Source: a virus
Lineage: Duplodnaviria > Caudoviricetes
Reading direction: 5' to 3' (one strand)
Length of the DNA stretch: 52,016 nucleotides
Virus record (IMG/VR): IMGVR_UViG_3300030380_004731
Span: 1-52,016 of that record
In this document: positions 22,651 to 51,144 of the stretch, in pieces
Position numbering within the stretch: the first letter of the stretch is position 1
Layout: each line of letters opens with the position of its first letter
The notes under the pieces: generated by a model
The model's database searches: none
The model's input: only the letters and a program-made list of their open reading frames with translations
What the model was told of the DNA's origin: nothing
Program-made: the position numbers and the translations under genes

Positions 22651-25600
22651 ATGCCTAATTTAAAAAGGAATTTTATAAAAGGTAGAATGAACAAGGCTGT
22701 CGATGAGAGACTTGTGCGTGATGGCGAATACATTGATGCAATGAATGTTCGTCTTGGTTCTACTGAAGAGACAGAAATTGGTTCAGTAGAAAACTCAAAA
22801 GGAAACTTACTTGCAACCCCTGCTCTTATATCTTTTAATGGATATGATCTTAGTACATCAGCAAGATGTATAGGAGCCTTTGAAGATGGTGTAAATGAAA
22901 CTTTATATTGGTTTGTAACCGATCCTGCATTCAATGTGTTAGGATCGTCTACAGGTAAGTTAGATTTAATTCTTTCTTTTAATATTCAAACAAATATTGT
23001 CACCTATCATATAATAAGCATTAATGATGGAGGCGGAGTAAACACAACATTAAACTTTAATTCAAAGTATCTTATTACAGGAGTTAACCTAGTAGATGAT
23101 ATGTTGTTTTTTACGGATGACCTAAATCCTCCTAGAAAAATAAATGTTACTAAAAGCTATCCTGCTCCGACTACCGCAGGAAGTATTGACGATGCTAATT
23201 TAGCTGCAGATATATTGGTTATTAAAGCACCACCTGTAGCCTCTCCTAGCTTTACTTTGTTTGATTCAGGATCTCAAGATAATTTTTTAGAGAGAAGATT
23301 TATTTGCTTTGCATATAGATATAGATATGAGGACAATGAATATAGTGCCACCTCACAATTTTCAGATGTAGCTTTTTCAAGTAAACAATTTGATTTAGAT
23401 ATTTCTAATTTTCTTAATGGAGGAATGCTTAATGTATTTAATACAGCAGAGGTTACTTACAATACAGGAGGACCATTAGTTAAAGGAATTGATTTACTAT
23501 TTAAAGAAGCAGATAACACAACCATTCGTGTTATTGAAAAGATTGAGAAGTTTGAAAATGGAGCTCAAGTAATATCGGATAATATTGATAGAACATTTGA
23601 GTTTGATAACAGTCGTATATATACAGTATTGCCTTCATCAGAGATATTAAGACTATATGACAATGTGCCAAGATTTGCAAAGGCACAAAGTATAATGGGT
23701 AATCGTTTGATGTATGGAAATTATGTAGATGGATATAATTTAATAGACAAGAGCGGAAATGATTTAAGGCTTGATTATCTTACAGAACTACATACCAATA
23801 CTGTTGAATTTACATCTATACCAAGTGCATCTATTGTTAAAAATTCTTTTACATATGGAGCAGGAGCAGGAGGAGCTACTATTGGAAATGCTAAACTAGA
23901 AGTAGATCTTAGTGGATTATCTTTAACTGCAGGAAGCACTTTAACAGTTTCTATTACTTTTACTCATAATAGTTTTGGAGGACCGGGAGCAGCTCCTACA
24001 GCTAAAACCACCAACCAAACCATTACACTATCTTTCAATCTGCAACAGGATTACACATCGGTTCAATCAATGGTAGACAGTTCGGAGTTTAAATCAGCTA
24101 TTGGATATAACAATATTGATACTCTTGCAAATGCTTGTACTGCATCATCTTTAAGTGATAATATGCGATGTGTATTACCTTCAGCTTTAGACTCATATGT
24201 TAAAACCGAAACAGGTTTAAATGGTTTTTCACCTTATCCTAATAGTGAGGGGATGTGGCAAGCAACTGCATCGGGATCTAATGTATTGAATATAGCTTTG
24301 TTAGCTTCTTTATACGTAAATGGATCAGTCAATATTTTTGAATATTATAAAATAGTTACAGCTACCGCTTCATTTTTTAATACCGACACCGCAAAAAGTT
24401 TACATAGCGACAGAGATTATGAAGTGGGTATTGTGTATATGGATGAATTTAATAGAGCTACTACTGCTCTAGTAAGTGATGAAACAAATACTATTCATGT
24501 GCCTTGTGATAATTCAGATTTGCAAAATCAAGTAAAGGTTACTCTTGATCCTACTATGCTTGCTCCTGCGTGGGCAAAAAGGTATAAGTGGGTAATGAAA
24601 CAAGATAAAGATACTTATGAAACAATTCTTTCACAATTTATTGTTAAAGATCCAAATAGTAATTATGTATGGTTTTTACTTGAAGGAGAGAATGCAAACA
24701 AGGTTGCTGTTGGAGATAAATTAAAAGTAAAGACAGATACAAATGGAGCTGTTAATACTTGTGCTTGGACAACTGTATTAGATAAACAGGCACAGCCCGA
24801 AGACTTTTTAATGCCTTCAGGTGGCACAGGACCTTTATCTACTGCAGGGGTATATATGAAATTAAACCCTACTAATTTTGCAGCCATTGTTAGTACGGCT
24901 ACTTCGGTTGTTGATTTTGGATTAGAGGAAAGCGATCAAGTAGGATGCTTAGGTGCAGATAGTGATACTCATCCTTTTTTAAATTATATTGTTAATCAAC
25001 TCGATCCTACTACAGGAAACTATGTGGATGTAGATGTGCCTGCAGGAAGTAGAATTGAAGTGTTTGTTGAGTTTAGAAGAAATGGAACAGGAAATCAATG
25101 TGAAGGACAAGTTTACACTATTGACCAAACTTTTGTTTCTACTGCAACTTATAATAATATAGCAGAATGGTGGGCAGGTGACAATATAGATATTACAACA
25201 GGAATTTCACAAGTAATACCTTCAGGTGCAGGTAATCCTAATACTAATGAATATGTATCTCCTTATCCTTCTATTGCCAACTTAGCCTCTATTAGTATAG
25301 GTATAACACCTGTGCAACCAAGTAGAAATCTTTATAGGTTTGGAAGACATATTACAGGAACAAGTAATGAATTAGTTTTAGAACTTCGAGGAGGTACAGC
25401 TACTTGTTGTGGAATATCACCCAATAGAAGATCATCTATTCAATGTCATATAAAGTTATTTAAAGCAAGTGAAGTTTTTGTGTTTGAGACTGAAGCTAAA
25501 GACACTTCGCCTGATATATTTTATGAAGGAGCTATGTCGTATCCTATTGATGCTAATGGCTTTCACTTAACTACGAATCCTTCTGAACCTAACAATATAG

Positions 25601-45274: not shown

Positions 45275-46500
45275 ATAAATTGTTTTTTAAAATGGTTAAG
45301 TGTGTAATCTTTCTTCTTAGTTACAGCTTTATATATCTGACTCTCAATACCACCCTTAGCAAAGACCCAATACACATCGTTAACTAGCCTATCTTTGGTG
45401 GTCATTCTATCTCTGCTCTGCCAATAAGACGTAGCACTAAAGTCAATGTTGTAATACACAAGTGCTGATGCCTGTCTCAATGACAGCCCCTCCCTACCAC
45501 TAACAATCTGCAGGGCTATTGACTTGTCAGTAGATTCAAACTCACTAAGCTCAGTGGTAAGCTCATCACCAAACACATCCTTCATTGCCTTGAGTTCTGC
45601 TGTAAACTTGTAGAAGATTCCAATCTTCTTGCCCTTGAAATGTTTCTTAATAAACTCAGCCTTACTATAGTCCATCACCATAGAGCTACCTGACTCAAAC
45701 TTCACTGTGCCTGAGAACATCTGATGTAACTTCATCATTAGCTTTACAGGAGTGTCAGCAAGAATGATTTCCTTCTTTCCCTCGATCACCAAGTCCTTTT
45801 GCAATCTCTTAGTCATGTCATAAGTATATGGTTTCATCTCTACCTCCAATACTTTCTCTGTAGTCTTGACCTTAAATCCTGCGTTCTCCTGCGTGAAACG
45901 GATAGTGTATGGTGTCATACTATCTATAATTGTTTTAAGCCCCTTAGAATAGTCGTTAATGAACATTCCGTTTATTTTTTTCTGTGTTACATTTACATAC
46001 TCATGAGCAAACTTGTAAAAGTTTTTGCAATGCTTGAAAGGATTGTTAGGAATACCATACACCTGATGGTACATCTGTGAGTAAGACTCAGGTGTAGGTG
46101 TTCCCGACATCAATATAACTTTGCTATTGCATTTTTGTATCATCTCCTTTACTGCCTTAGCTCTTTTGTTTGGCTTGGCAAACGCACCAAGACTATGTGA
46201 CTCATCACATATGATTACATCCCACTTGATAGGTGGTAGCTTGTGCATACTCTCATAGTTAATAGTAAACAATGCAAAGTTTGTGGGGCATAACATATCA
46301 AAGTCAGATGTGATTGAGCTGATCGCCTTCTTCTTGGTTAAGAACAATACGTTATCAACATTAAGTTGTTCACAAATCCCTAGGCTTGTTAGTGTCTTAC
46401 CTGTCCTGACTTCCATAGCAAGGTACAAGAAGTTGTGTGCTTCTATTATAGATGTTCCTCTCTGTATAATATCTAATTGATAATCTCTGTATTCTATCAT
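45271..46500 (-). CDS. SF2 (SNF2-like) helicase; probable start MIEYRDYQ
   Basis: YRDYQ Q-motif, RTGKT, DESH, SGTP, GREGLSL, QSRDR; ATGA overlap with the primase stop. Confidence 0.85.
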   Translation of the reverse strand: MIEYRDYQLDIIQRGTSIIEAHNFLYLAMEVRTGKTLTSLGICEQLNVDNVLFLTKKKAISSITSDFDMLCPTNFALFTINYESMHKLPPIKWDVIICDESHSLGAFAKPNKRAKAVKEMIQKCNSKVILMSGTPTPESYSQMYHQVYGIPNNPFKHCKNFYKFAHEYVNVTQKKINGMFINDYSKGLKTIIDSMTPYTIRFTQENAGFKVKTTEKVLEVEMKPYTYDMTKRLQKDLVIEGKKEIILADTPVKLMMKLHQMFSGTVKFESGSSMVMDYSKAEFIKKHFKGKKIGIFYKFTAELKAMKDVFGDELTTELSEFESTDKSIALQIVSGREGLSLRQASALVYYNIDFSATSYWQSRDRMTTKDRLVNDVYWVFAKGGIESQIYKAVTKKKDYTLNHFKKQFI

Positions 46501-48914
46501 AGCTTTAGTGTTCCTGTTTCTTCTACGTCTTGAATGCGTAAAAATATTATCCACTTACCATGCTTGTCTCTACCGTCCTTTGGTTCAACGCCATGGTGGT
46601 ACTTTCCATAGTCATTTAACCATCTATAAAATTCAGTACGTGAGATCTTCATATTACCTCTTGATGAATAGTCAGGGTAGTCCTCAATGAACTCCAAGTA
46701 CAGATCCTGCTTGTATGTTTTTGTGTTGGGTGTAAGTAAAGTATTGAAAGGATAGCCCTCAAGTAAACCACACCACTCTAAGAAGTCTTTGCTTGTGTCT
46801 CTGATTAGATTTTTTAAGTTAGCATTAACAAGATCACTCTTGACAAATCCTTTCTCTAAGTAAAACTGTAAACAACTTATCATATAGTTGTCAAAGATAC
46901 ACCACTCATCATCATCCCAATCTCCAAACATTAACTTCTTAAACTCATCAAGAGGAGTGAAGTGTTTTGAGTAATACTGATGTAGCTCAAGCTCCCACTT
47001 ACGTCTTGCAAATGAATTGCCTGATCCCTTGATGGTATAGTTTGTGGTGATAGCAATCTTAGGAGACTTAGCAAATGGTATCTTAATAGCATCCTTGTTT
47101 TTCTTCTCAAGTGTCAACCCCTCAGTTACTACCGAGAACAATCTCTCAAAGTCAAAGTGTTTCTTCACATCATCAAAGCAAAGTATCTGCGTGTCTGCTG
47201 ATACAAGTTGGTATGCGAAACTCTTTTCAAAAGCAAATGACTTGCCATCAATCACCACCACCTTCTTCATCTTCTGTAATGCATTCATAAACAACCCCTT
47301 ACCTGTACCACCCTCAGGGTTATCAGAGATAGCTTCATCATTAAGTATTACTGCAGGACAATAGCTGAGGTTCTTATACCCATGCATCATATATCCTATC
47401 GTTGATTCCATAGACAAAATACGCTTCTCATCTTTGTTGCATATGTTACCGATAAATGTTTTGTAATCACAGTCATTTGATTTACATATGCTAAAGTTCC
47501 TATCAATGATATGATCTTTCCATACGTACCCACCCAAGTCTAAATAGTCTAATGGTATTACCTTGTCCTTAGTTATTTTTACTGCACAATTTCTGTAGTA
47601 CAAATACGAGGTGTGCTTGGTGTCCTCAATAAAATACACATCAATAGATGAGAGCAATGTTAAGAACTCATCCTTGAAGAACCGAGTGTTGTCAGCAAAG
47701 TAATTGTATATACTTATATCATCTAGCTCAATAAGGTGTTCAAGTATAAAATCTTTTATCTCCTTCTCTGAGGTGTGGTCTATTAGATTGTTAACCACTC
47801 TAACAAATACATAGTTCTTGCTACCCTCGGGGCAATACTTATAAAAGCCATTGTCCTCCAAGAAAAGTTTGAATAGTATGTGGACTATCTTGATTGTGCC
47901 CTTGTCATTCTTCGTCCAAAAGGTCATCTTATCATTATCCTCCTCAGCCCTGTTCAATACTGCCTCAATAACATTATCCTCTATATCCTTGTCCTTCAAC
48001 TCATCCCTTACTTCTTTCTTTGACATACCACGCTTGAGCTTTACCTTGATCGTGTTCACTCTCTCCTCATCCTCATAATACTTTGTGCCAAAGTTCTGAG
48101 TGTTTGAGTATGCTGAGTCAATCGTTCTGATTATCTCACGTTGATTAAAGTCTTTAGTTGCATACTGATTAAGTACATACTTAGCTAACTCTCTGTTGAT
48201 TCCAAAGTCATTGAACGCTGAAGCTAGTACAAAACAATTTTGATTACGTTGCCCCTCTTCCATTGGGAACTTCTTTACCCACCACTTAACAAGTATATCT
48301 ACAATCTTATTCTCATCTGTTATAGGTATGGTAGCTACATCTCTGTGTTTATTTACTTCCTTGTACTCAGGCTCCTCGATCTTATCCCATACACTTGAGT
48401 TGTCATTGATGTGTATCAATGGGTCATAACTCTCATAGCATACCCTTGATACATTCTTACAGGTATCATCAAAGTATTCTGAATTGAAATATGTTTTAAG
48501 TGAATTAAAATAGTTAGTGTGATTGGTTTCATCTATGGGTATTTTTACTAGGACCTTTAGTCCATTACCCGATGGTGATAAGAATACTGAGTAGACAAAT
48601 GTATTCTCACTATACTTTTGTTTTGCCTCAAGTAAATCTTTCTTCTTCTCAAAGCCATCAAAGTCTAGGCATATCAAACCACTGTGCTGAAGTAGTGAAG
48701 CATCATTTCTTTTAGTGAACTTACCTGAGAAACATATCGCAGGTAACTTCTTCTTTAATTCTTGACGTTCAGATTTATTATTCTCATTACGTATGTTCTT
48801 CACTAATTCTTTGCTAGTGCCGTTTTTTATTCTATCCAATATATCTGCTGCATCCCTGTAAAATGGGGTGCTCGTGTCCTTTATGGACTTGAATATTGTT
48901 ATTAAGTGTGTCAT
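46497..48914 (-). CDS. Primase-helicase (BT4734/VirE-N-like domain, PriCT-like domain, P-loop ATPase)
   Basis: LKKKLPAICFSG, SGLICLDFD, SPSGNGLK, SRVCYESYDP, EGQRNQ, GGTGKG, CFDD, ITTN. Confidence 0.85.
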   Translation of the reverse strand: MTHLITIFKSIKDTSTPFYRDAADILDRIKNGTSKELVKNIRNENNKSERQELKKKLPAICFSGKFTKRNDASLLQHSGLICLDFDGFEKKKDLLEAKQKYSENTFVYSVFLSPSGNGLKVLVKIPIDETNHTNYFNSLKTYFNSEYFDDTCKNVSRVCYESYDPLIHINDNSSVWDKIEEPEYKEVNKHRDVATIPITDENKIVDILVKWWVKKFPMEEGQRNQNCFVLASAFNDFGINRELAKYVLNQYATKDFNQREIIRTIDSAYSNTQNFGTKYYEDEERVNTIKVKLKRGMSKKEVRDELKDKDIEDNVIEAVLNRAEEDNDKMTFWTKNDKGTIKIVHILFKLFLEDNGFYKYCPEGSKNYVFVRVVNNLIDHTSEKEIKDFILEHLIELDDISIYNYFADNTRFFKDEFLTLLSSIDVYFIEDTKHTSYLYYRNCAVKITKDKVIPLDYLDLGGYVWKDHIIDRNFSICKSNDCDYKTFIGNICNKDEKRILSMESTIGYMMHGYKNLSYCPAVILNDEAISDNPEGGTGKGLFMNALQKMKKVVVIDGKSFAFEKSFAYQLVSADTQILCFDDVKKHFDFERLFSVVTEGLTLEKKNKDAIKIPFAKSPKIAITTNYTIKGSGNSFARRKWELELHQYYSKHFTPLDEFKKLMFGDWDDDEWCIFDNYMISCLQFYLEKGFVKSDLVNANLKNLIRDTSKDFLEWCGLLEGYPFNTLLTPNTKTYKQDLYLEFIEDYPDYSSRGNMKISRTEFYRWLNDYGKYHHGVEPKDGRDKHGKWIIFLRIQDVEETGTLKL

Positions 48915-49078: not shown

Positions 49079-49104
49079 AAAAAAGGGAGGAACCACCCTC
49101 CCTT
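49079..49104 (-). terminator. Intrinsic terminator after SSB-like gene
   Basis: AAGGGAGG-aaccac-CCTCCCTT with A-run on the left (U-run on -). Confidence 0.75.
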
Positions 49105-49125: not shown

Positions 49126-49380
49126 TTAGAAGGGCAGATCATCTGTTTTCTTTACTGCCTTCTCTTTCTTTTCACTTGGCTCCCAAGTGTCTAGTTCTAC
49201 GTAGTAATTACCACTACGTGCTTTATTAATGTTGAGGTTGATCCAACCATTCTTCATGTTCTTTTTAATGAATGGTCCTGCATCTTCAACCTTAATACTA
49301 ACCTGACCTACTACAAAGTCAGGTGCGTTTTCTCTTCTCTTAAATGAGAATCCATCTGCAAAAATTTTATCTTCTGCCAT
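49126..49380 (-). CDS. Putative single-stranded DNA-binding protein
   Basis: 84 aa beta-rich with acidic C-terminal DDLPF tail, downstream of recombinase and exonuclease. Confidence 0.65.
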   Translation of the reverse strand: MAEDKIFADGFSFKRRENAPDFVVGQVSIKVEDAGPFIKKNMKNGWINLNINKARSGNYYVELDTWEPSEKKEKAVKKTDDLPF

Positions 49381-49395
49381 AATATAAATTTAATT

Positions 49396-49458
49396 TGTCC
49401 CAAGATTATTTAGTTCACAAGGCATCAGGATGGTTGAGACATCCACCTAATACTCCTG
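49396..49458 (-). ncRNA. Candidate cis-regulatory RNA pseudoknot in SSB leader
   Basis: Stem 1 CAGG-a-GUAUUAGG-UGG / CCA-u-CCUGAUGC-CUUG; loop a-UGUCUCAA pairs with downstream UUGGGACA. Confidence 0.6.
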
Positions 49459-49464
49459 TATATT

Positions 49465-50211
49465 TTAAAGTGTTTGATTGATATAGTAATTGTCTAGGTC
49501 ATCTGTTGGATTGTCTCCAAAGAACTTATTGTAAACCTCAATAGCCCTTTCAACTTTCTCCTCACCACCCATTACAAAATCTTCTGATGGTTTATACATT
49601 CCAAGTTGATGTGTTATCTTATCCACCACTAAAAATATTAGTGGCTTACCAAATAGTTGTTGGTATATATAACACTGACTATCATAGTTGTACTTACGTG
49701 CCGACCATCTAAAGTCTTGTATGTTTGAGGTAGTCTTTAGATCAATCACATTAGTTGGCGTGATGATGTCTGCCTTACCTTTCCATAACATACCTTTGAT
49801 GTTATCAACAGCAGGCTGTTCATAACTACTACCCTCTTGTGTTATCATATCAAAGAAGTCAATGTTACCTCTGATTGTTTTCACAATTTGTAATATGTTT
49901 TCACACTCCTTAGATAGTAAAGCCACTTGTACATTATTGTCTGCAATAAATTCTTTGTATGCTTTTGAGTTACGTGATGATACGTCAGCACATAAAGTTT
50001 GCATTGCTTTGTCGGGCTCAAGTAATAACTGATGAAAGTATCTACCCTCAGCAAAGTTTTTGTTATCCTCTTGAGGCACTCTAAACATTTTAGGATTTTT
50101 TAGTAGTGTTCCTATGTCTGAGTTGCTAAGGTATTGCCTACCTATATCTCCATAATAGTTAGCATCATCCTTTAGTATTTCAATGATGTCCTTTGTTGCT
50201 ATCTCACTCAT
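49465..50211 (-). CDS. RecE/exonuclease VIII-like PD-(D/E)xK exonuclease
   Basis: LSNSDI, GRYFHQLLLEP, KGKAD, IDLKTT, YNYDSQCYIY. Confidence 0.85.
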   Translation of the reverse strand: MSEIATKDIIEILKDDANYYGDIGRQYLSNSDIGTLLKNPKMFRVPQEDNKNFAEGRYFHQLLLEPDKAMQTLCADVSSRNSKAYKEFIADNNVQVALLSKECENILQIVKTIRGNIDFFDMITQEGSSYEQPAVDNIKGMLWKGKADIITPTNVIDLKTTSNIQDFRWSARKYNYDSQCYIYQQLFGKPLIFLVVDKITHQLGMYKPSEDFVMGGEEKVERAIEVYNKFFGDNPTDDLDNYYINQTL

Positions 50212-50566
50212 TCTCTTCAGGTTTTAATGGTTCGTAAATAGTTTGACCGAGTAATTCTCCTTTGTTAAAATGATCAATGTACTCTAATTGATTTCTAAGA
50301 TTGTAATAATACACATCTCCTGTTATTGATTGAAGAGTATCTACTATTAATTTTAACTCTATAAAATATTCTATACTTCCATTATCAAAGTAAGTTGTAT
50401 CATTCACACTTAATGTATCTCCCATCTCAACATTTATATCTTCTCCGTTATCAGAGTAAAATATAATATTTTGTTCATCATTAATATACCCTTTTGGTTT
50501 TTCATATTCCTGTGCATACATCATTGATGACACTGAGAATGTTATAATTAAAATTAGATTTTTCAT
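50204..50566 (-). CDS. Putative exported acidic protein
   Basis: Signal-peptide-like MKNLILIITFSVSSMMYAQ with Gln at +1; MORN-like YYYNLRNQLEYIDHFNKG. Confidence 0.55.
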   Translation of the reverse strand: MKNLILIITFSVSSMMYAQEYEKPKGYINDEQNIIFYSDNGEDINVEMGDTLSVNDTTYFDNGSIEYFIELKLIVDTLQSITGDVYYYNLRNQLEYIDHFNKGELLGQTIYEPLKPEENE

Positions 50567-51144
50567 TTGATTAGTTTTTTAATTTCAGTTTTTACTTTAG
50601 GTGTTACATTATATTTTCTTTGTAACTGATCCACAATTTTTGTCAATCCCATTTCTTTATTTGCTCCTACATATTTCAATACCTTCTCCCAATTATCATC
50701 ATTGATATTTAGTTCAATGGTTTTCTTTTGTGTAGGTAAAGGTGTTACTTCGGGCAGATCTTCTCCTGTCCATAAGCTCAACCCAAGACCATGCATAGCT
50801 ATTGCTTTTGCAGTTGACCTTTGTATTGTTTTGTTTACATCCATTGATGTAATGTTATCGACTTGGATTGATTTATTTCTGTAGTCCATTACAGGTAGGT
50901 AGTCTATATGCTCAATGTCATCTACTACTATTCCTACTTTTACATAGGCATAGTTGCCATCCGTAAAATAATTTAAGCCTGTGTGATCGTGTTCATATAC
51001 TTTCCTTTGTGCTTTAGGATATTTTGTTTTGAGCATAGCCCATGCATTAGCCCATGATAAGTAGTCAAGTTGCCCCTTACGTTCTATCTTATCTCTTACT
51101 GCAATACTACTTAGCGTTGCGAATACTGATTTTGTTGTTGCCAT
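50563..51144 (-). CDS. Sak/DUF1071-type single-strand annealing protein
   Basis: YLSWANAW, LPVMDYRNK, NKTIQRSTAKAIAMHGLGLSLWTGEDLP. Confidence 0.85.
   Translation of the reverse strand: MATTKSVFATLSSIAVRDKIERKGQLDYLSWANAWAMLKTKYPKAQRKVYEHDHTGLNYFTDGNYAYVKVGIVVDDIEHIDYLPVMDYRNKSIQVDNITSMDVNKTIQRSTAKAIAMHGLGLSLWTGEDLPEVTPLPTQKKTIELNINDDNWEKVLKYVGANKEMGLTKIVDQLQRKYNVTPKVKTEIKKLIK

Follow-up and report, generated by a model that had tools for sequence, protein, structure and literature searches.

The closest known counterpart of the leader considered here is the operator of bacteriophage T4 gene 32, in which, according to two reports, a pseudoknot nucleates cooperative binding over an adjoining A/U-rich tract that contains the ribosome binding site (PMC535899, PMC3014915). 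The 3′ component of this operator is described, in the first of these reports, as unstructured, A/U-rich and longer than 40 nt, with several UUAAA or UAAA repeats (PMC535899). A pseudoknot is also present in the leader of E. coli rpsO, which encodes ribosomal protein S15 and is autoregulated at the level of translation, in the account given by the second (PMC3014915). Among viral sequences, the survey of IMG/VR by Fremin et al. (2023) reports 8495 candidate structured RNAs, 12 of which lie upstream of GP32 genes and were read as possibly autoregulatory, and it also indicates that Rfam is without a model of the T4-type gene 32 pseudoknot (PMC10690425). Another pseudoknot motif, STAXI, is often found near genes encoding ssDNA-binding proteins; its two or three copies, which have UUCG loops, are arranged in tandem, and a role as ssDNA was suggested for it (PMC2864571).

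The sequence analyzed here, referred to below as the window, is a complete virus record of 52,016 bases from a marine phage. On its minus strand, an intergenic leader separates the stop codon of an exonuclease gene (49465–49467) from the ATG (49378–49380) of a small gene whose product ends in DDLPF (Table 1). Judged by the sequence comparisons described below, this leader is a cis-acting H-type mRNA pseudoknot and belongs to a new motif family located directly before an unannotated, very abundant gene with an SSB-type tail. As in the T4/T2/RB69 gene 32 operator, the H-type pseudoknot stands 5′ of an unstructured A/U-rich tract, and the gene that follows belongs to a phage replication/recombination module and encodes an ssDNA-binding protein, a putative one in the present case. 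A first-pass annotation of the window had proposed such a gene-32-like layout, and the pseudoknot, the one-nucleotide loop 1 (an A) and the A/U-rich tract running to the start codon bear it out. The dimensions differ, however: the pseudoknot spans about 60 nt with a stem 1 of 15–17 bp as compared with about 28 nt in T4, and the unstructured tract measures 13–27 nt, with one UUAAA in the window, as compared with more than 40 nt and several repeats. The protein encoded downstream is no homologue of gp32, as that annotation had also supposed (the window protein matched no Pfam, PHROG or NCBIfam family), and the two systems are presumably unrelated in sequence. Since it stands before another protein and its operator dimensions are different, the leader is not a member of the gene-32 operator family.

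The secondary structure that had been drawn for the minus strand in the first-pass annotation is indeed present. Stem 1 is composed of CAGG/CUUG, GUAUUAGG/CCUGAUGC and UGG/CCA, giving 15 bp, three of them G-U, with A 49454 and U 49430 bulged out; two extra pairs, between 49459–49460 and 49416–49417, would bring it to 15–17 bp. Eight nucleotides of the hairpin loop form stem 2 (UGUCUCAA/UUGGGACA, 8 bp with one G-U), leaving a single A as loop 1, and the 15 nt up to the ATG are pure A/U. This spacer, the presumed ribosome landing site, was unpaired in every fold computed. The single UUAAA that it contains is, by a rough estimate, at about the level expected by chance for an A/U tract. In RNAfold, the minus strand of the leader yielded stem 1 (−19.6 kcal/mol, z −1.98, equalled by 4 of 200 shuffles), and the plus strand no notable fold (z +0.56). 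An alternative GGAUG/CAUCC hairpin, which had been suggested to act as a switch, does exist as a sub-optimal register shift in the window sequence alone, but it was absent from the MFE and centroid structures, and it is not conserved in relatives, so that the switch was abandoned.

Table 1 Features of the leader and of its neighborhood in the window, listed in the order in which they follow one another on the minus strand.
Feature	Position	Strand	Remarks
Sak-type single-strand annealing protein	50563..51144	-	
Upstream PD-(D/E)XK exonuclease	49465..50211	-	DUF3799, phrog_412 exonuclease VIII
Whole intergenic leader	49381..49464	-	84 nt, exonuclease stop to ATG of the DDLPF-tailed gene
Stem 1, 5′ arm	49443..49460	-	CAGG-A-GUAUUAGG-UGG, plus two optional outer pairs (UA)
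Loop 1	49442..49442	-	Single A; invariant A here in subclass A1
Stem 2, 5′ strand	49434..49441	-	UGUCUCAA; in hairpin loop, abuts the 3′ arm of stem 1 (loop 2 = 0)
Stem 1, 3′ arm	49416..49433	-	CCA-U-CCUGAUGC-CUUG, plus UG
Loop 3	49404..49415	-	AACUAAAUAAUC; 12 nt, A-rich
Stem 2, 3′ strand	49396..49403	-	UUGGGACA
Spacer	49381..49395	-	AAUUAAAUUUAUAUU; 15 nt, pure A/U, without Shine-Dalgarno sequence
84-aa ORF	49126..49380	-	Candidate ssDNA-binding protein; 68-aa conserved core, short linker, C-terminal DDLPF
Terminator-like hairpin	49079..49104	-	AAGGGAGG/CCUCCCUU, then U run; 22 nt past stop codon; read by eye, unlisted by the terminator/promoter scan
Downstream primase/helicase	46497..48914	-	BT4734-like N domain, PriCT_1, DUF5906; about 200 nt past the terminator-like hairpin

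The leader was also evaluated with a pseudoknot scorer that requires a hairpin whose loop forms a gapless helix with a strand further downstream, the structure ending 8–32 nt before the ATG. The leader scored 26.25, a value that not one of 2000 dinucleotide-shuffled versions of the 84-nt sequence attained and that was reached in 3 of 4152 sliding windows of this genome (both strands, the leader counted). Since a scan of 52 kb may yield a chance case, an unusual single sequence is no proof alone, and what decides the matter is that the structure is conserved, with covariation, among relatives.

Four RNA runs contain small shares matching the window, all as contigs, and DNA carry-over is possible. 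One 197-nt contig from an oligo-dT RNA library covers positions 49341–49537, that is, the end of the exonuclease gene, the leader and the start of the small gene. Another contig, from a doubtful RNA run, stops at 49415, directly past stem 1, but contigs cannot show transcript ends. No promoter was detected on the minus strand upstream of the leader with a sigma-70-type scan, which is unsuited to Bacteroidota promoters. A role of the structure in stimulating readthrough or frameshifting of the exonuclease was rejected, because the next in-frame stop lies five codons on, and also because the motif is present where no ORF adjoins it.

With the protein as the query, 80 IMG/VR loci and 80 metagenome loci sharing 51–99% amino-acid identity were collected, and the leader set comprised 118 unique 130-nt leaders of homologous genes. 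A score of at least 22 was found for 53 of these 118 leaders as compared with 28 of 2360 shuffles, and a score of at least 24 for 39 leaders as compared with 7 of 2360 shuffles; a single reverse complement out of 118 reached 22. The 69 leaders scoring at least 20 fell into 38 compact leaders, similar to that of the window, and 31 extended ones. Compact leaders display the classical H-type topology, in which the hairpin loop pairs with a downstream strand, loop 1 is short and loop 3 longer: loop 1 is 1 nt in 31 of the 38 and loop 2 is absent in 36, loop 3 measures 5–12 nt, and stem 2 ends 13–27 nt from the ATG. Their spacers have a median A+U content of 89% (100% in the window), and 20 distinct stem-2 sequences are represented among them. 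Twelve unique homologue leaders, with the exonuclease stop 5–22 nt from the ATG, contain no pseudoknot, and the gene can thus do without it.

The NMR structure of the T2 pseudoknot is said to comprise a single-A loop 1 over a 7-bp stem 2, and in this respect it would resemble the present motif. In rpsO, the start region is itself part of the pseudoknot, which traps the 30S subunit, whereas here the start codon and the preceding 13–27 nt lie outside the fold. With fibre-model helix parameters, we estimated that a loop 3 of 5–12 nt must span about 51–55 Å of a 15–17 bp stem 1, a distance that it could cover only in an almost extended form. Stems 1 and 2 may therefore be unable to form together over their whole length, and fraying at the base of stem 1, or bending of the helices, may be required. 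No correlation was observed between the length of stem 1 and that of loop 3 (Spearman 0.02).

Covariation was analyzed in a subclass, A1, defined by 16 similar-looking leaders flagged by the scorer and picked out of 66 unique viral leaders. The window and one relative (L005) were removed from the first alignment because MAFFT had misplaced them, and the resulting alignment of 15 sequences (A2), a plain MAFFT alignment not fitted to the structure, had stem 2 paired in 105 of 105 cells, with changes on both sides in all 7 pairs. A covariance model encoding stem 1 only (R1) gave 22 matches in the viral loci, 20 of them distinct and 7 outside the seed, one of these 7 being a second copy in locus L025 with its own complementary stem 2. 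In the alignment of these viral matches, stem 2 was 100% paired with 7 of 7 pairs compensatory, and stem 1 was 86% paired with 12 of 15 compensatory; the covariation score was reached by none of 500 shuffles, and slid partners paired in 32–51% of cells. In held-out metagenome loci, R1 gave 20 matches (18 distinct, 14 new sequences), with stem 2 paired in 126 of 126 cells and 7 of 7 pairs compensatory, and stem 1 91% paired with 14 of 15 compensatory. As R1 contains no stem-2 pairs, this metagenome result is an independent test of the pseudoknot helix. When the 3′ partner was slid by 1–3 columns, pairing fell to 31–57% across the A2, viral and metagenome alignments.

In total, the subclass comprises 34 distinct sequences in which stem 2 is paired in 238 of 238 cells, 236 of them Watson-Crick and 2 G-U. 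Stem 1 of the same sequences contains 104 G-U as compared with 14 A-C among 499 cells; this large excess of G-U shows that it is the sense strand that folds, and it upholds the strand-specific RNA selection claimed in the first-pass annotation. The covariation that the annotation had proposed to look for in homologue leaders is thus found in both stems, and these comparative data show both helices to be selected at the RNA level, on the sense strand. Invariance of an AGA preceding stem 2 and of a U-G pair close to the top of stem 1 is confined to A1; both are missing from the group to which the window belongs.

R1, which was built from A1, did not match the leader of the window even at E ≤ 10, because its primary sequence differs, and the window group is consequently joined to the family by position and architecture rather than by a common model. 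The nearest relatives, with 71–75% protein identity, form three lineages (L004/L089/L091; L090; L005/L085–088/L092), all of which follow an exonuclease stop and share the same architecture with unrelated stem-1 sequences, each of which folds. Stem 2 reads UGUCCUA/UAGGACA in L004 and L090 and GUCUCAA/UUGAGAC in L005, and the leader of L003 departs from that of the window at a single base, so that a U-G pair of the window is U-A in L003. In a MAFFT alignment of eight sequences of this subgroup (A5), 88.6% of cells were paired as compared with 30–45% for slid partners, none of 500 shuffles reached the covariation score, and 5 of 11 tested pairs were compensatory (3 of 3 at the top of stem 1 and 2 of 8 in stem 2). 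The loop of L090, which MAFFT misplaced and which was left uncorrected, lowers the figures of this alignment. Another alignment (A8) was discarded since MAFFT had misplaced stem 2 of L004 and L091. The single-sequence z-scores are modest, and equally high scores in 3 of the 4152 genome windows would be in keeping with a chance complementarity devoid of function, but the overwhelming covariation in 34 distinct relatives and in the window subgroup excludes chance for practical purposes.

No match was found in Rfam 15, either with the window region (E ≤ 10) or with 18 representative loci (E ≤ 1), a check suggested by the first-pass annotation that came out in favor of novelty. We also found no description in the literature of a pseudoknot leader for this protein family. 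The stem-1 hairpin may already be among the 8495 unnamed candidates of Fremin et al.; the approach, a comparison of viral contigs, is the same, but its candidates upstream of GP32 genes precede a recognized GP32 domain, which is lacking in the gene studied here (PMC10690425). Several riboswitch classes characteristically have an H-type pseudoknot near the start codon, and since no known family was matched, a small-molecule riboswitch or a self-cleaving ribozyme was considered. We regard it as very unlikely: almost none of the unpaired nucleotides is conserved from one class of the motif to another, and the downstream gene belongs to replication and recombination rather than to metabolism.

R1 was then run on five near-complete phage genomes of 54–62 kb. 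Four of the five contained one match each, and the fifth two, the duplicate lying about 250 nt upstream of the leader copy; in each of the five, one match was in the leader of this gene. The motif is thus bound to one gene and stands at a fixed distance (13–27 nt) from its ATG. Its location in a replication/recombination module beside a primase gene, together with the precedent of STAXI (PMC2864571), raises the alternative that the element works as a structure of single-stranded DNA, either as a replication or priming signal or as an ssDNA promoter as proposed for STAXI. The fixed distance from the ATG and the many G-U pairs specific to the sense strand argue against this. Unlike STAXI, the motif is single-copy in four of the five genomes, with one adjacent duplicate in the fifth and no tandem copies, and no match was obtained to the STAXI model in Rfam (RF01728). 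An ssDNA element is therefore highly improbable.

The gene located upstream of the motif varies among relatives, and can be the exonuclease (gaps of 41–109 nt), a membrane-protein-like ORF, a methyltransferase or a tRNA gene; in several relatives (L025, and others by eye) the tRNA gene ends a few nucleotides before stem 1. In the window, a small ORF lies on the minus strand between the Sak-type and exonuclease genes. On the other side of the gene, a terminator-like hairpin was found in 102 of 114 unique loci, whether the pseudoknot was present or not. These boundaries would suit a pseudoknot that acts independently of any protein as an mRNA stabilizer and folding insulator, located at or close to the 5′ end of the processed mRNA, blocking 5′-end-dependent decay, keeping the A/U landing site single-stranded by locking up the sequence before it, and raising the output of a protein required in bulk. 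Where a tRNA gene abuts stem 1, tRNA processing would leave the pseudoknot 5′-terminal, and the spacer is unpaired in all folds. In T4, the gene 32 message is likewise bounded by processing and terminator structures (PMC535899, PMC3014915); it is cut just upstream of the pseudoknot and is described as the most stable T4 message (PMC3014915). However, a plain hairpin would be enough for 5′ protection, while the almost entirely Watson-Crick stem 2 (236 of 238), the one-A loop 1 and the zero-length loop 2 point to a recognized three-dimensional shape, and the single copy in four of five genomes, with an adjacent duplicate in the fifth, means that other highly expressed genes are without the motif. 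We consider such protein-independent stabilization rather unlikely, albeit a serious contender, and by analogy with T4 it could coexist with autoregulation.

In the extended class, the strands GUUCCAW.. and ..WUGGAAC are about 35–45 nt apart and sit in the 3′ end of a conserved ORF of 50–120 aa whose stop overlaps or abuts the ATG. In 26 such leaders, chosen by score and by eye, 7 core pairs were paired in 182 of 182 cells; one of these pairs is A-U in 18 rows and U-A in 8, a clean switch, and a second shows a partial switch. These data, which give weaker support than those of the compact class, would fit the presence of the same pseudoknot within coding sequence. The conserved ORF also brings in the alternative that the leader is an operator for another trans-acting factor, such as an RNA-binding repressor of the phage or host, an RNase III-type processing enzyme with the long stem 1 as its substrate, or, in the extended variant, the product of the small ORF directly upstream. 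It is the shape and not the sequence that is conserved, as the 20 distinct stem-2 sequences indicate, and a stem 1 of 15–17 bp is long enough for a dsRNA-binding enzyme. Such a factor nevertheless appears unlikely, given that no candidate co-occurs with the motif over the contexts examined and that the compact class, the window included, is without such an upstream ORF.

The protein encoded downstream was compared in 55 aligned sequences. Its core of about 68 aa is rich in invariant aromatic and basic residues, the linker is of variable length, and the chain ends in D-[DE]-[LI]-P-F with hardly any variation, P83 and F84 being invariant or nearly so. A linker followed by an acidic tip ending in P-F is a C-terminal trait of the SSB type, and DDLPF also ends two SSBs from Flavobacteriaceae MAGs. 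When hhalign was run against five cellular SSBs from Flavobacteriaceae/Flavobacteriales MAGs, those two among them, nine residues of the C-terminal tail aligned and nothing else. None of the 55 aligned relatives had a convincing family match, and none matched PF00436. The 84-aa protein had no match among PDB sequences, and fold searches against the PDB gave nothing significant (best VIA Z 2.3; best Foldseek E 0.55). Searches of the predicted viral structures of BFVD returned uncharacterized proteins only, those of the ESM Atlas only unnamed viral clusters, with DUF736 at 0.81, below the lead threshold, and those of GenBank phages one uncultured record annotated as "hypothetical". At least 3250 homologue clusters exist at 90% identity; among the 120 listed, no Pfam domain was found and the sole name was "hypothetical protein".

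The AlphaFold model (pLDDT 77) predicts the order strand-strand-helix-strand-strand; no fold match was obtained with it, and this predicted order is compatible with a minimal OB topology. The first-pass annotation had described the protein as a minimal SSB. The linker, the DDLPF tip and the Sak/exonuclease/primase module agree with this description, but no recognizable OB fold or SSB family emerged. The label is derived from the tail, the linker and the neighborhood, and from these features we infer that the 84-aa protein is a putative SSB.

The carriers are probably phages of roughly 50–60 kb that infect Bacteroidota. Of 16 matches in a genome collection, 8 fell in Bacteroidota MAG bins, although this is weak evidence for the host, as the bins may contain binned phage contigs. 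The BT4734-like domain of the primase was also noted in connection with the host. Bacteroidota, the likely host group, are not known to use Shine-Dalgarno sequences.

Taken together, the pseudoknot probably controls the output of the DDLPF-tailed protein. Our leading explanation, held tentatively and by analogy with gene 32, is autogenous translational repression by the gene product. The pseudoknot and the adjoining A/U-rich, Shine-Dalgarno-less spacer would constitute a translational operator; product in excess of its ssDNA ligand would bind the pseudoknot and spread across the short single-stranded spacer needed by ribosomes, turning off its own translation as gp32 does. The pseudoknot would probably also cap the 5′ end of the processed message and, with the terminator hairpin after the gene, could give a stable monocistronic mRNA. 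Autoregulation is placed first because the motif is nearly single-copy, because its shape goes beyond what 5′ protection needs, and because the layout is like that of T4 gene 32. Against it stand a protein that is not recognizably an SSB, an operator of 13–27 nt as compared with more than 40 nt in T4, and the twelve homologue leaders without a pseudoknot.

It is possible, although we advance it with reserve, that this leader represents a second, independently evolved pseudoknot operator, together with a new minimal SSB fold (a core of about 68 aa) that borrows the DDLPF tip of the host SSB, and that the system is shared widely among uncultured aquatic phages that form a very large group, probably infecting Bacteroidota, in which initiation does not depend on Shine-Dalgarno sequences. 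The pseudoknot of this leader shows unusually clean covariation and occupies the corresponding place before a putative SSB gene of a phage lineage that is unrelated and very abundant. If the protein binds its leader, this would be a case of convergent evolution of SSB dosage control, would provide a way into the control of translation where hosts do without Shine-Dalgarno sequences, and would give a large family of unknown proteins a function. Even if mRNA stability alone is affected, the motif would constitute a well-supported new cis-regulatory RNA family, fit for an Rfam-style description and for structural work.

In the leader class that we call the extended variant, represented by 26 loci in alignment A9, a small conserved ORF of 50-120 aa and the DDLPF gene, which encodes the candidate ssDNA-binding protein, overlap at the ATG of the latter. 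The C-terminus of the small ORF product resembles ...CETRAEK..LLEQNIIII, and both strands of stem 2 of the leader pseudoknot are located inside this ORF in the same alignment. Where one strand carries a Met/Leu swap, the partner strand shows Leu/Met, so that the base pair is kept.

A second copy of the pseudoknot was found in locus L025, where stem 2 is formed by its own pair, AUCUCAG/CUGAGAU, complementary throughout. This copy is followed downstream by a 13-codon ORF and then by a tRNA-Gln gene (1330-1420), and it looks like a duplication that arose when the tRNA region was inserted. tRNA-like 3' ends (GGTTCGAATCC...) were also observed a few to about 40 nt 5' of stem 1 in the leaders of L137, L151/L155, L154, L024, and L054; confirmation of a tRNA by ARAGORN was obtained in L025 only. 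This arrangement suggests that the DDLPF gene message is freed through tRNA processing.

Thirty-nine of the 183 loci contain a perfect 16-nt palindrome, GTGTC-N6-GACAC, with four copies in L001 and none in the window. The palindrome often directly precedes the pseudoknot, and further intergenic sites carry it as well. It may be an operator or a promoter-linked site in this phage group.

Coordinates of features in the window and in loci with DDLPF gene homologues
Feature	Location	Strand	Position relative to other features
Second pseudoknot copy	L025:1173-1250 = L124:1173-1250		~250 nt upstream of main copy
Extended variant (example)	L028:1375-1482		
GTGTC-N6-GACAC palindrome	L006, L013, L014, L024, L052, L062, L105, L109, and others		~80-160 nt before ATG
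Top site of sliding pseudoknot scan	window, about 23990-24115 (plus-strand coordinates)	-	
120-aa ORF	window 50204-50566	-	between Sak and exonuclease genes
G+C-rich hairpin and U run	window 49079-49104	-	directly 3' of DDLPF gene

The sliding pseudoknot scan of the window reached its maximum on the minus strand, inside the stretch of about 130 nt that precedes position 23986 on that strand, and this top score was due to a very long hairpin (25 pairs). By eye, the 120-aa ORF has a hydrophobic, signal-peptide-like N-terminus, and its position is an odd one for a secreted or membrane protein.

The Flavobacteriaceae/Flavobacteriales MAGs (L178-L180; G001-G003) encode SSBs of normal length with a DDLPF end, and additional short SSB paralogues of 111-117 aa without the acidic tip.

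Finally, the window copy of the terminator-like hairpin was not listed by the consensus terminator scan. In 102 of 114 related loci, too, the DDLPF gene is immediately followed by a G+C-rich hairpin and its U run, and the gene thus closes a transcription unit across the family.
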